From contig CAZSYL010000005.1 of assembly GCA_964610745.1 (NCBI GenBank), positions 1 through 31,159 on the forward strand: a DNA stretch of 31,159 nucleotides, in the 5' to 3' direction. The notes below the pieces were generated by a model. It saw nothing but the letters and a program-made list of their open reading frames with translations, was not told the origin of the DNA and made no database searches. The stretch is from an uncultured Acidimicrobiales bacterium. GTDB lineage: Bacteria > Actinomycetota > Acidimicrobiia > Acidimicrobiales > SHLQ01. The first letter of the stretch is position 1, and the number at the start of each line of letters is the position of its first letter. This document shows positions 27,381 to 31,115 of the stretch, one piece after another. The position numbers and the translations under genes are program-made.

Positions 27381-28514
27381 GTGTTTGCCGTAGAAGCGAC
27401 GCGCGCCCAGGTATGCGTGCGTTCAAACGGCAGCGCCGTGACCATTCGCGTCGCAGGGCGCGAGATCATCGCCCCAACCACCAACGGGGTCGCCGTGGTC
27501 GACCTTGAACAGTTGCACCCAAAGACGAACTATGTCGCCCAGCTGCTCGACAGCGCCGGTGAGTCAATCGGCCAGCTGTCCTTCCAGACCAGGCGCCGAT
27601 TCGAAGGTGACACCGTCAAGTTCGCAACCATCTCTGACGTGCATCTCGGCGGCGAAGAATTCGGTGGCCACCCCGCGTACAACGAGCCGCCGGACACCGA
27701 GCCGCACTTTGCACTTCGATGCGCCGCCGCCGCAGTCCGCGAAGCCATCGAATGGGGTGCCGAGGTCCTCGTCATCAAGGGTGATCTGACAGACACGGGC
27801 GCACGAACCGATTGGGAGCTGGCTCACCGGTTGCTCGATGACCTTCCGATACCCGTCCTATCAACATGGGGAAATCACGACGTTTGGAAGACCCGAGAGG
27901 TCAACCCCGCGGAGATGGAACCAACCTTCGCCCTGAACCCCAACAGCAGCGGTGGCTCAGCCGGCCAGGTCACAAGCCACGACCTTGGACCTACACGAAT
28001 CATCCTTGCCGACACCAGTGTTCCCGATCGCGGACACGGCACCATTGCCCAACATGAAGAACAGATCCTCGAGCTCATCGACTTTGACGGACCAGTTTTT
28101 CTCGGCATCCATCACAACATCATGCGCACCCCCCTGCCGTGGTTCTGGCCGCCGGGCATTGCTCCGTCCAACGCCAGTTCGTTGCTGGCCGAAATCATCC
28201 GCGTGAACCCGAACGTCTTCGTTAGTTCGGGACACACCCACCGCAACCGACTTCACCGCATCGGGCCCGGAGGTCAGATCTGCTTTAGCGAAGTGTCTGC
28301 AACCGCGGACTACCCGGGGGCGTGGGCCGGCTATGAGGTCTCCGACACACTGCTTCGCCAAACAGTGCGGCGAATAGCTGCCCCAGAGGCACTCCTGTGG
28401 ACCGAGCGGGTCCGCGGGGCGATCTTCGGCGTATGGCCCCGCTGGTCACAGGGACGCCTCGATGACCGGTGCGTCGACATGTCGGTGCCTATCGCACCAA
28501 GATCAACCGATTAA
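27381..28514 (+). CDS. Metallophosphoesterase (calcineurin-like phosphoesterase)
   Basis: ISDVHLG, GDLTDTG, GNHD, GHTHRN metal-binding motifs; probable GTG start at 27381, 50 nt after the pepN stop; the earlier part of ORF 27081..28514 overlaps pepN. Confidence 0.7.
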   Translation: MFAVEATRAQVCVRSNGSAVTIRVAGREIIAPTTNGVAVVDLEQLHPKTNYVAQLLDSAGESIGQLSFQTRRRFEGDTVKFATISDVHLGGEEFGGHPAYNEPPDTEPHFALRCAAAAVREAIEWGAEVLVIKGDLTDTGARTDWELAHRLLDDLPIPVLSTWGNHDVWKTREVNPAEMEPTFALNPNSSGGSAGQVTSHDLGPTRIILADTSVPDRGHGTIAQHEEQILELIDFDGPVFLGIHHNIMRTPLPWFWPPGIAPSNASSLLAEIIRVNPNVFVSSGHTHRNRLHRIGPGGQICFSEVSATADYPGAWAGYEVSDTLLRQTVRRIAAPEALLWTERVRGAIFGVWPRWSQGRLDDRCVDMSVPIAPRSTD

Positions 28515-28524
28515 CCTCTGCGGT

Positions 28525-29784
28525 ATGGACTTTGACCTGTCAGCAGTAGAGCTTCGAGTGCTTTGTGCGTTGGTCGAAAAGGCCGAGACAACTCCGGATC
28601 AGTATCCACTGAGCACGACTGCTCTTCGGGCAGCGTGCAACCAGAAGACCAGCCGCGATCCTGTCACCGACTTCAGCGACTCCGACGTCGAAGCAGCCAT
28701 CTTGAGCCTCCGCGAACGCGGGGCCGCTCGCAGCGTCAGACCATCGGGATCACGTGGCTGGAAACACCGCCACACCATCGAGGAAGCACTCCCGTTGACA
28801 GCCGCGGAGAAAGCGCTCGTGACGGTGCTTGGATTGCGCGGTGCACAGACCCCCGGTGAGCTACGTCAGCGAACCGAACGCCTCCACCCTTTCGACTCGG
28901 TAGAGGCAACCGAAGCGGAACTACAGCGACTCGCTGCCAGGCCTGATCCACTCGTCGAGAACCTCGGCAGAGAGCCAGGGCAAAGCCAAGACCGATGGAT
29001 GCACCTTCTTTCGAGCGCGGTGCAGAGCCCCCAGCAAGGCCGTCAACGAGTAATGGCGGCCGAGTTCGAAGCGCTTCATCACTCCGGATTCTTCGCGTTG
29101 CCCAACCCATGGGACTCGATGTCCGCAAAGGCCATGGAAGCTGCTGGAGCAAAGGCTGTTGCGACGAGCAGCGCCGCGTTGGCTACCACCCTCGACAAAG
29201 ACGACTACGGGTTGAATCGAAACGAGTTGATCGGTCACGTGGAGACGCTCACCTCTCGCCTCGACATTCCGGTACACGTCGACGGAGAACAGCTCTTTGG
29301 CAACGAAGCGGGTGGCATTACCGAAACCGTTCGGCTGTTGTCCCATGCAGGTGCAGCCGGCGTCTCGATCGAAGATTACAACCCCGCAACCGGAGCCATC
29401 CTCGAACTCGACGAGGCCGTCAGCGCGGTCGCAGAGGCGGCTGTGGCCTGCGAGGAACATCACCTGTTCCTCACCGCACGCGCCGAGAACCACCTCCACG
29501 GTCGCGACTCGATCGGCGACACGATCGAACGATTGCAAGCCTACGCCGACGCTGGAGCGCAATGCGTCTACGCCCCGGGGCTCACCAATGTCGACGACAT
29601 CGAGCGCGTCGTGATCGAGGTTGGGGTCCCGGTTAATGTTCTGGCGGTTCCAGGTGCTCCGGACTTCGAGATGCTCGAGCTCATCGGCGTACGACGAGCA
29701 TCAGCGGGCTCCCTGCTGTTCCGTCAAGCGGAGAAGGCTATTGTCGATGCCATCGACGAATTTTTGGGGATCACTACATCATGA
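28525..29784 (+). CDS. Fusion of an N-terminal DUF480 (YceH/UPF0502) domain with a C-terminal PEP mutase/isocitrate lyase-family (ICL/PEPM) domain
   Basis: The N-terminal 175 aa track E. coli YceH (TTPDQYPLS, ACNQKT, LRGAQTPGELRQR, REPGQSQDRWMHLLS). From MAAEFEALHHSGFFALPNPWDSMSAKAMEAAGAKAVATSSAAL onward it is a typical ICL/PEPM-family (2-methylisocitrate lyase-like) domain. The reading frame is continuous with no stop between the two parts. Confidence 0.6.
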   Translation: MDFDLSAVELRVLCALVEKAETTPDQYPLSTTALRAACNQKTSRDPVTDFSDSDVEAAILSLRERGAARSVRPSGSRGWKHRHTIEEALPLTAAEKALVTVLGLRGAQTPGELRQRTERLHPFDSVEATEAELQRLAARPDPLVENLGREPGQSQDRWMHLLSSAVQSPQQGRQRVMAAEFEALHHSGFFALPNPWDSMSAKAMEAAGAKAVATSSAALATTLDKDDYGLNRNELIGHVETLTSRLDIPVHVDGEQLFGNEAGGITETVRLLSHAGAAGVSIEDYNPATGAILELDEAVSAVAEAAVACEEHHLFLTARAENHLHGRDSIGDTIERLQAYADAGAQCVYAPGLTNVDDIERVVIEVGVPVNVLAVPGAPDFEMLELIGVRRASAGSLLFRQAEKAIVDAIDEFLGITTS

Positions 29785-30437
29785 CCGACATCGACACCGC
29801 ACCCGGCCCTCGACCGGTCAAACTCACGGTCTATTCGGACTTTCTTTGACCGTGGTGTTTTGTCGGGACCGTGCGCCTCGACGAACTTCAAGAGCAAATG
29901 GGCGACCGAATCGAAGTCGACTGGAAATCATTCCTACTTCGGGCAGAGCCAAAGACCGGAGATCGGGAGCAGTTCATCGAGTACACGAAGTCGTGGTTGC
30001 GTCCCGCCGAAATGGAACCCAAGGCCGCCTTCACCGTCTGGGCCAGCGATGAAGACCAACCGTCGTCGAGCATTCCGGCACAAGTGGCCTTCAAGACCGT
30101 CGAGGCCATCGCCCCCGAACTCGCTAAGGCATATCACGACCGTCTGATGACGGCGTACTTCACCGAGAATCGCAATATCGCCGACAGCGATGTCCTGATC
30201 GAGTTGGCCGTCGAAGTTGGTGTGGACGCCGACGAGTTGGCTGAAGCTGGGCGAAGCCGTCGTGAAGAACTCACCCAACAGGTGATCGATGAGCACAACA
30301 ACGCCATGGCGAACAACGTCACCGGCATCCCGACCGTGCTGTTCGAAGATCAGTTCCCCGTGCCCGGCGCGCAGCCGGTCATGACGTATGTGGAGCTGGT
30401 CGAGCGCATCGAAGAGCACCTTGCTCAAAACAAGTAA
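29781..30437 (+). CDS. DsbA/FrnE-family thiol:disulfide oxidoreductase with an in-frame TGA (29847..29849) in place of the first Cys of the CxxC motif; candidate selenoprotein (U-P-W-C)
   Basis: ATG 29781 (ATGA overlap with the upstream stop) gives MTDIDTAPGPRPVKLTVYSDFL-[TGA]-PWCFVGTVRLDELQEQMGDRIEVDWKSF..., which matches the FrnE/DsbA consensus (I.V.SDf.CPWCyiG ... VeWr.F) straight across the TGA. The six-frame track reports only the downstream part (29871..30437). Confidence 0.6.
29859..29885 (+). promoter_or_regulatory. Candidate bacterial SECIS-like hairpin 10-13 nt downstream of the in-frame UGA
   Basis: gucggg (29862..29867) pairs with ccucgac (29877..29882) with one G.U; apical region accgugcg carries GU; the stem can extend with uuu/gaa. 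The apical loop lies about 21-25 nt from the UGA. Confidence 0.35.
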
Positions 30438-30521: not shown

Positions 30522-31115
30522 ATGCATTTTTCTTTCGAACCACAACTGATCAAACAAGATTCGGCGGTTCCACTCCGAATGGTCGTCGGCGGCTGGCTAG
30601 CTGGCGTGGTCGTAATTTTCGTGCTCGGTCCGGTGACCAACCGCCTGATTGGGCTAATGGGAATCTCGCTCATCGCTGGAGGCCTCCTCGGCCTTTCTCT
30701 TCGGGCGACCCGGATGTGGCGGATGGTTCTCGGCGCGAGTACCGGTGCATTCGCTGCCTGGTTGGGTTTCCGATTCGCATTCGAAGATCGTCTAATTCCT
30801 GCGATTGGGGACCCCCTCGAACTGGCCGATGTCGACATCTTGGGCGCGATTGCACTCGGGTTGTCGGTGTTGTCGATCGGCGTCGGTGGAGTGCTCGAGG
30901 CCGTGCAGGCGCAAGCTGCACCGGGTTCGTCGCCGCTACCGGTCAAGGTGTTCCTTATCGCCGTCGGTCTCGTGATCACCGCAGCGATCGCAAGTGCAGC
31001 GGGCGTGTCCACGATGATCACGATCCTGCTGGCGCTTGCCGCGGCCGCTGGGCTGGCAGCGATTGCGTTCTTGCGCAGGGAACGTCCTTCGAGCGACTTT
31101 GTGCCACAGCCTTAG
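30522..31115 (+). CDS. Hypothetical multi-pass membrane protein
   Basis: ORF of 197 aa with several Gly/Ala/Leu-rich hydrophobic segments; the competing antisense ORF 30425..31021(-) is low-complexity Pro/Arg/Ala and is judged spurious. Confidence 0.4.
   Translation: MHFSFEPQLIKQDSAVPLRMVVGGWLAGVVVIFVLGPVTNRLIGLMGISLIAGGLLGLSLRATRMWRMVLGASTGAFAAWLGFRFAFEDRLIPAIGDPLELADVDILGAIALGLSVLSIGVGGVLEAVQAQAAPGSSPLPVKVFLIAVGLVITAAIASAAGVSTMITILLALAAAAGLAAIAFLRRERPSSDFVPQP

Follow-up and report, generated by a model that had tools for sequence, protein, structure and literature searches.

The window analyzed here is a 31,159-nucleotide stretch of DNA from an uncultured Acidimicrobiales bacterium (GTDB lineage Bacteria; Actinomycetota; Acidimicrobiia; Acidimicrobiales; SHLQ01), namely positions 1 to 31,159 of the forward strand of contig CAZSYL010000005.1 (NCBI GenBank assembly GCA_964610745.1). 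The gene at 29781-30437 very probably encodes an FrnE-type oxidoreductase of the DsbA family (COG2761) in which selenocysteine (Sec) takes the place of the N-terminal Cys of the CPWC motif, giving U23-P-W-C26. An initial annotation, made from the sequence of the window without database searches, had read this gene as a candidate selenoprotein. That reading is supported here by the conservation of the TGA codon, by the pairing of Sec and Cys forms at the same position, by a covarying hairpin that resembles a Sec insertion sequence (SECIS), and by membership in a published clade. The features on which the argument turns are as follows.

29781..30437, + strand: coding sequence of the predicted DsbA/FrnE-like selenoprotein, 217 residues (Sec23, Cys26) plus TAA
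29847..29849, + strand: UGA, predicted to encode Sec as residue 23, which opens the UPWC motif
29850..29861, + strand: spacer of 12 nt between the UGA and the hairpin, of the same length in all aligned members and free of indels
29856..29858, + strand: TGT for the sole Cys of the 217-residue protein, Cys26, which is the resolving residue of UxxC
29862..29882, + strand: SECIS-like hairpin GUCGGG-ACCGUGCGC-CUCGAC, with the 5′ arm at 29862-29869, the loop at 29870-29874 (C-G-U-G-C) and the 3′ arm at 29875-29882
29871..29873, + strand: GTG (Val30), a false start chosen by gene callers, inside the SECIS loop, where it supplies the invariant GU

A single reading frame runs from ATG 29781 to TAA 30435-30437 (218 codons), as had been claimed, and its sole in-frame TGA, at 29847-29849, falls between the segments VKLTVYSDFL and PWCFVG. 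Ahead of this TGA, the open frame contains no start codon other than ATG 29781. When Cys is substituted for the TGA, the window protein matches the Pfam family DSBA (PF01323) with 91.8 bits against a cut-off of 25.6 bits, and because the match extends over residues 15-205 (profile positions 2-188 of 191), the DSBA domain runs across the TGA. The best match among solved structures is D. radiodurans FrnE (5cnw; E = 3.5e-15), with residues 10-208 of the window protein aligned to residues 9-216. In this alignment the TGA codon falls on the first Cys of CPWC. The proposal that the TGA occupies the place of the redox-active first Cys of FrnE is therefore confirmed, both by this crystal structure and by the more distant Cys-type homologues described below, which have Cys at the same position. 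The codon for Cys26 encodes Cys without exception (TGC 34, TGT 33 in 67 distinct sequences). By inspection, the N-terminus of the window protein, MTDIDTAPGPRPVK, has no hydrophobic stretch ahead of the first strand. The protein also has no C-terminal CxxxxC regeneration motif, there being no Cys besides Cys26.

A protein search returned 163 homologues, and DNA was fetched for 13 genome loci and 80 metagenome loci (numbered with an L below) in which the aligned codon was read. It is TGA in 82 loci, the window and 81 others, at 43-98% protein identity and always in the context SD(F/Y)L-TGA-PWC. No close homologue has a Cys codon at this position, TGA being kept down to 43% identity, and TGT or TGC occurs in six more distant homologues (L004-L009) from Myxococcota, Pseudomonadota, one other Acidimicrobiia metagenome-assembled genome (MAG) and an unclassified marine MAG (TMED88). 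The TGA-bearing loci L001-L003 are from named MAGs of Acidimicrobiales or Actinomycetota. One of these, the 78%-identical syntenic orthologue L001, belongs to the Acidimicrobiales MAG CAYVHV01; in it the TGA and the synteny are preserved and the hairpin is intact. The window sequence itself recurs on ~130-kb contigs of two independent ENA assemblies, k141_860602 of ERZ27295578 (132,870 bp) and scaffold_88 of ERZ23487673 (127,363 bp), with the same TGA and the same ATG. A bare in-frame stop codon, and nothing more, is what would recommend reading the TGA as a sequencing error, as a recent nonsense mutation that created a pseudogene, or as a sign of global UGA reassignment. The probability of all three is practically negligible, because 82 loci and two independent assemblies share the TGA and because TGA is a normal stop in this DNA: it ends 13 of the 23 long open reading frames (ORFs) of the window, including the gene directly upstream of 29781, so that UGA is not globally reassigned.

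The segment ahead of the TGA behaves as translated sequence in these alignments. Across the 67 distinct sequences, Ser(-4), Asp(-3) and Leu(-1) never change although they are written with five, two and three codons, respectively, and Trp(-5) and Phe(-2) hardly change. An in-frame start 5′ of the TGA is present at all loci (ATG 76, GTG 6), at a distance of 12-28 codons in all but one. As judged from this comparison, the protein sequence is under selection on both sides of UGA 29847.

Public gene calls nonetheless omit that segment. Both public assemblies of the window contig call a 188-residue product from GTG 29871, the very truncation that had been predicted of ordinary gene callers, and about 100 database homologues begin at the same ‘MRLD’. 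Homologues down to ~47% identity are nearly all 185-190 residues long and cover only ~85% of the query; these short MRLD-starting entries suggest that the gene callers were stopped by a shared in-frame stop. Since all public calls use GTG 29871 or an equivalent start, one might take the 188-residue protein to be the true product and the upstream segment to be untranslated, but we consider this extremely unlikely. The Val30 codon is GTG in 22, GTT in 29, GTC in 15 and GTA in one of the 67 distinct family sequences; because GTG appears in only 22 of 67, this codon is not a conserved initiation site and cannot initiate translation in the rest. Upstream starts are present, the upstream segment is conserved at the protein level with synonymous variation, and a product without the first 29 residues would lose the CxxC-equivalent motif, which lies inside both the Pfam and the FrnE alignments. 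No NCBIfam model covers the DsbA-like selenoprotein clade, which accounts for the persistence of the truncated entries. The practical value of reading the gene as a full-length selenoprotein is in annotation: databases carry the window gene and more than 100 relatives as fragments of 185-190 residues without the active site, and as a result redox and selenium-use inventories for marine Acidimicrobiia undercount this enzyme.

The hairpin proposed in the initial annotation is present at 29862-29882, begins exactly 12 nt after the UGA and holds GU in its loop, and covariation across the family supports it. Its loop residues include G29871 and U29872; the first loop position, 29870, lies 20 nt past A29849 and 23 nt from U29847. 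In a gap-free alignment of 68 distinct 60-nt segments, 94.6% of the cells in the eight stem pairs and the GU-flanking pair are standard pairs; the corresponding value is 32-44% in registers slid by 1-3 columns, and none of 500 shuffles reached 94.6%. Two stem pairs vary in a compensatory manner, pair 27-37 (GC 46, CG 19, UA 2) and pair 28-36 (AU 53, GC 8, GU 6). Columns 30 and 33, which correspond to window positions 29870 and 29873 and are synonymous third positions flanking the loop GU, are complementary in all 68 segments through five pair types (CG, GU, GC, AU and UA), in a pair that would enclose only two nucleotides. No variation occurs at G31, U32 or C34, and the core of this helix was also predicted independently by RNAalifold. 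A conserved lower stem was also considered and was rejected, as RNAalifold supports the upper hairpin only. The alignment of these 68 UGA-hairpin segments provides a clean, covariation-supported example of a SECIS from an actinobacterial lineage.

This RNA element dictates protein sequence. Changes in column 27 are synonymous, as this is the third position of a Gly codon, whereas the matching changes in column 37 exchange the next-but-three residue between Leu, Val and Ile; a constraint on the RNA thus drives amino-acid change. Codon choice is narrow at other positions, with Arg(+9) encoded only by CGU or CGC and Val(+5) by GUC in 60 of 67 sequences. The six Cys-type homologues are without an equivalent hairpin and have other residues in place of YVGTVRLD, a segment that is fixed in the Sec forms and free in the Cys forms.

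The prototype of the bacterial SECIS (bSECIS) is the element of E. coli fdhF, whose loop, GGUC, has complementary outer bases on either side of the exposed G23-U24 and whose distance from the UGA is 11 nt. The family element described here shares the general design, being a coding-region hairpin right after the UGA, with a small apical loop in which G is followed by U and with 20 nt from UGA to loop. The bSECIS consensus model of Zhang & Gladyshev, as quoted in PMC13188914, specifies a loop of 3-9 nt, a stem of 4-16 bp, a UGA-to-loop distance of 16-37 nt, a free energy of ≤ -7.5 kcal/mol, and a G at the first or second loop position, with G or U as the usual next base and complementary flanking bases N1:N2. 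The family consensus, with its 8-bp stem and 5-nt loop, agrees with every one of these specifications. Over 48 nt, the energy is ≤ -7.5 kcal/mol for 64 of 66 distinct copies, with the window copy at -10.5. The family loop has the form N-G-U-N′-C, with N and N′ complementary in 68 of 68 segments. It differs from the published N1-G-[G/U]-N-N2 pattern in that the complementary pair encloses GU alone (N1-G-U-N2, followed by the invariant C). The GU-flanking pair thereby sits one position off the published arrangement.

The family to which the window gene belongs has been described. Zhang, Fomenko & Gladyshev 2005 (PMC1088965) reported a DsbA-like (COG2761) UxxC selenoprotein family from the Sargasso Sea and predicted a SECIS for AACY01178397. 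In their supplement this sequence reads MDSPISIVVWSDFLuPWCYVGTVRLEDVEK..., and the same hairpin comes after it. Peng et al. 2016 (PMC5029168) tallied 41 organisms with the family, and ‘DsbA-like protein form 1, PF01323, UxxC’ is listed in a 2026 review (PMC13188914). The window protein is 46% identical to AACY01178397 over 201 residues without gaps (E = 3e-71), and the two share the PF01323 domain, U-P-W-C at the same position and the same hairpin (GUCGGGACAGUUCGUCUUGAG in AACY01178397). In DNA, AACY01178397 is 99.7% identical to L076, and AACY01078317 is 99.7% identical to L091. By these comparisons, the window gene is a new, unannotated orthologue in the selenoprotein clade published in 2005. 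It is a higher-GC (60%) Acidimicrobiales orthologue, itself undescribed, and differs from the 2005 family as follows: the residue next to the CxxC-equivalent motif on its C-terminal side is Phe and not Tyr, the hairpin contains an A·C mismatch that is unique to it, and the start codon overlaps the end of a DUF480/PEP-mutase gene as ATGA. Other published ‘DsbA-like’ entries (e.g. AACY01028493, ...IDYIuPWCYLSTV...) fall in other clades and differ in the sequence downstream. Knowledge of selenoproteins as such is unchanged, the family, the motif and the SECIS having all been published in 2005. The original Sargasso Sea sequence falls in a subclade whose TGA-bearing loci come from open-ocean metagenomes and have a low GC content of 41-46% (L067, L069-L079, L081, L082, L085-L089).

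Several observations weigh against a functional Sec codon in the window organism. The covariation counts come from related sequences and carry no phylogenetic correction. The window copy has an A29868·C29876 mismatch at pair 28-36 (Arg31 being CGC and not CGU), the sole non-pair there among the 68 segments. As a consequence of this mismatch, its 21-nt core reaches only -5.7 kcal/mol, compared with a family mean of -9.7, which makes this core of the weakest kind known among the members, and its loop widens to 9 nt: the minimum-energy fold has a 6-bp stem and a G at loop position 4, outside the first two positions. Folded alone (54 nt), the window hairpin has a free energy of -11.6 kcal/mol and z = +0.74, making it no stabler than shuffled sequence, and its significance comes only from the comparative data. 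At gathering thresholds no Rfam family matches, and a permissive scan of 29750-29980 gave a chance match to a small RNA (E = 7). ARAGORN found no tRNA-Sec in the window or in 94 sequences comprising 973 kb of homologue flanks. Likewise, tblastn gave no match to SelA, SelB or SelD in the window and the ~973 kb of flanks, a weak negative given that the E. coli query sequences were unverified. The 10 kb downstream of the window contain no sel genes; in all, ~51 kb of the ~130-kb contig were read. Linkage of these genes is in any event not expected.

The unique non-pair, the low core energy and the lack of sel genes in the window and flanks, the last with the weakness just noted for SelA, SelB and SelD, could be taken to mean that the gene is decaying or poorly decoded here, the Sec trait having been lost or weakened so that most ribosomes stop at UGA 29847. 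We think this very unlikely. The 218-codon frame has no further stop and keeps the family-invariant residues, the same sequence is present in two independent assemblies, and the 78%-identical L001 retains the TGA, the synteny and an intact hairpin. Moreover, SelB binding could survive a single mismatch beside a C-G closing pair. The weakened hairpin might mean that the UGA is partly decoded as Cys, or is mostly terminating, in this organism.

A search of all collected sequence for TGA followed by a hairpin found, beyond the DsbA-like genes, only one case that we regard as real, a formate dehydrogenase gene on L090. The 14 other matches looked like out-of-frame noise or adjacent same-frame genes and were rejected.

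L090:4967-6979, - strand: FdhA (formate dehydrogenase alpha subunit), with its TGA at L090:6638-6640

This gene is divergent from a clade member ~450 bp away, whose own TGA lies at L090:7092. Its product matches TIGR01591 with 616 bits and E. coli FDH-H with E = 6e-126, and the TGA aligns with Sec140 of FDH-H. The FdhA hairpin has the same layout as the DsbA-like element, with a 12-nt spacer, a GUCGUC/GGCGAC stem and a G-GU-C-U loop. As a sequence-based prediction, the L090 FdhA gene offers indirect support for Sec use; it is the only such support on the same contig, beside a clade member and not in the window organism. At a broader taxonomic level, all 84 complete genomes of Actinomarina, a genus of the class Acidimicrobiia, contain selC, selA, selD and a divergent selB according to a 2026 preprint. 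The possibility that the low-GC clade members are themselves Actinomarina was rejected, their GC content being 41-46% versus 31-34%, and because of this mismatch the Actinomarina machinery provides class-level support only.

These data also bear on the identity of the inserted residue. A tRNAReC-type tRNA decodes UGA as Cys when a SECIS follows, and the SelB route could accordingly insert another residue at position 23, such as Cys, or both Sec and Cys; nothing in the analysis discriminates between Sec and Cys there. We nevertheless hold this alternative to be highly unlikely, given that ARAGORN found no such tRNA in the window or the 973 kb of flanks, that the clade is the published DsbA-like selenoprotein family, that its L090 member adjoins an FdhA gene with TGA at the canonical Sec position, and that Sec machinery is documented in the class Acidimicrobiia.

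For the preferred assignment, Sec at residue 23, D. radiodurans FrnE (DR_0659; PDB 5cnw, 5cp1, 5e59) is the closest structural reference, its CPWC aligning with the UPWC of the window protein. This enzyme, from the FrnE subfamily (cd03024) of the DsbA family, acts in the cytoplasm as a disulfide reductase/isomerase, and the FrnE active-site motif has been described (PMC8945050). It differs from the window protein in having Cys instead of Sec and in carrying a C-terminal CxxxxC (239-244) with a proposed role in active-site regeneration; the window protein stops short of this tail. The FrnE proteins of S. roseofulvus and D. maricopensis are also without the CxxxxC tail and in this respect resemble the window protein. 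The motif occurs in many members of the FrnE subfamily but not in all, S. roseofulvus FrnE being one without it, and so does not strictly define the subfamily.

Based on these comparisons, we propose that translation begins at ATG 29781, which overlaps the stop codon of the DUF480/PEP-mutase gene, and that the hairpin at 29862-29882, located 12 nt past UGA 29847, would present its loop GU to decoding at the ribosome. Recruitment of SelB·GTP·Sec-tRNASec by the hairpin would then allow Sec to be inserted in place of termination, after which translation would run on to TAA 30437. The resulting enzyme would be expected to cycle between a selenolate/thiol and a U23-C26 selenenylsulfide, reducing or isomerizing substrate disulfides. 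With Sec23 and Cys26 present and no other Cys, such a selenenylsulfide cycle would probably need an external reductant, as in the tail-less FrnE homologues. We infer Sec insertion at UGA 29847, SelB binding, the presence of selA, selB, selC and selD in the organism, the cytoplasmic location and the nature of the substrates from the conserved features and related systems described above.

The family hairpins follow a rule stricter than that of the bSECIS model, with a 12-nt spacer, a stem that starts with GUCG, and complementary bases enclosing GU, a layout to which the hairpin of the unrelated FdhA gene on L090 also conforms. It is conceivable, if doubtful, that this rule reflects a lineage-specific SelB code in marine Acidimicrobiia. 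Were that true, the code would let a dedicated covariance model find all of the selenoprotein genes of marine Acidimicrobiia that Rfam models miss.

The gene is preceded by the following neighbor, with which it shares four nucleotides.

28462..29784, + strand: DUF480 + PEP_mutase fusion gene, 440-residue ORF (PF04337, 171.5 bits; PF13714, 204.9 bits)
29781..29784, + strand: ATGA start/stop overlap (ATG 29781-29783, TGA 29782-29784)

The fusion gene, in which DUF480 is YceH-like and the PEP-mutase part is of the isocitrate-lyase superfamily, is probably co-transcribed with the DsbA-like gene. The ATGA overlap between the two, noted at the outset as a sign of translational coupling, is present as stated; it is common only to L001, and seven other syntenic loci have a gap of 18-42 nt instead. 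The fusion gene is directly upstream in the nine closest loci only, and the metallophosphoesterase, M1 aminopeptidase, DUF480/PEP-mutase and downstream membrane-protein genes are syntenic among the closest relatives only. With the synteny confined to the closest relatives and the overlap to L001, no functional link follows. A crude screen of the window, based on third-position GC content (GC3) and read-through, gave no convincing second selenoprotein. Located 3′ of the DsbA-like gene, at 30522-31115 (+ strand), is a hydrophobic ORF of 197 residues that has no Pfam match and is syntenic in seven of the closest loci.

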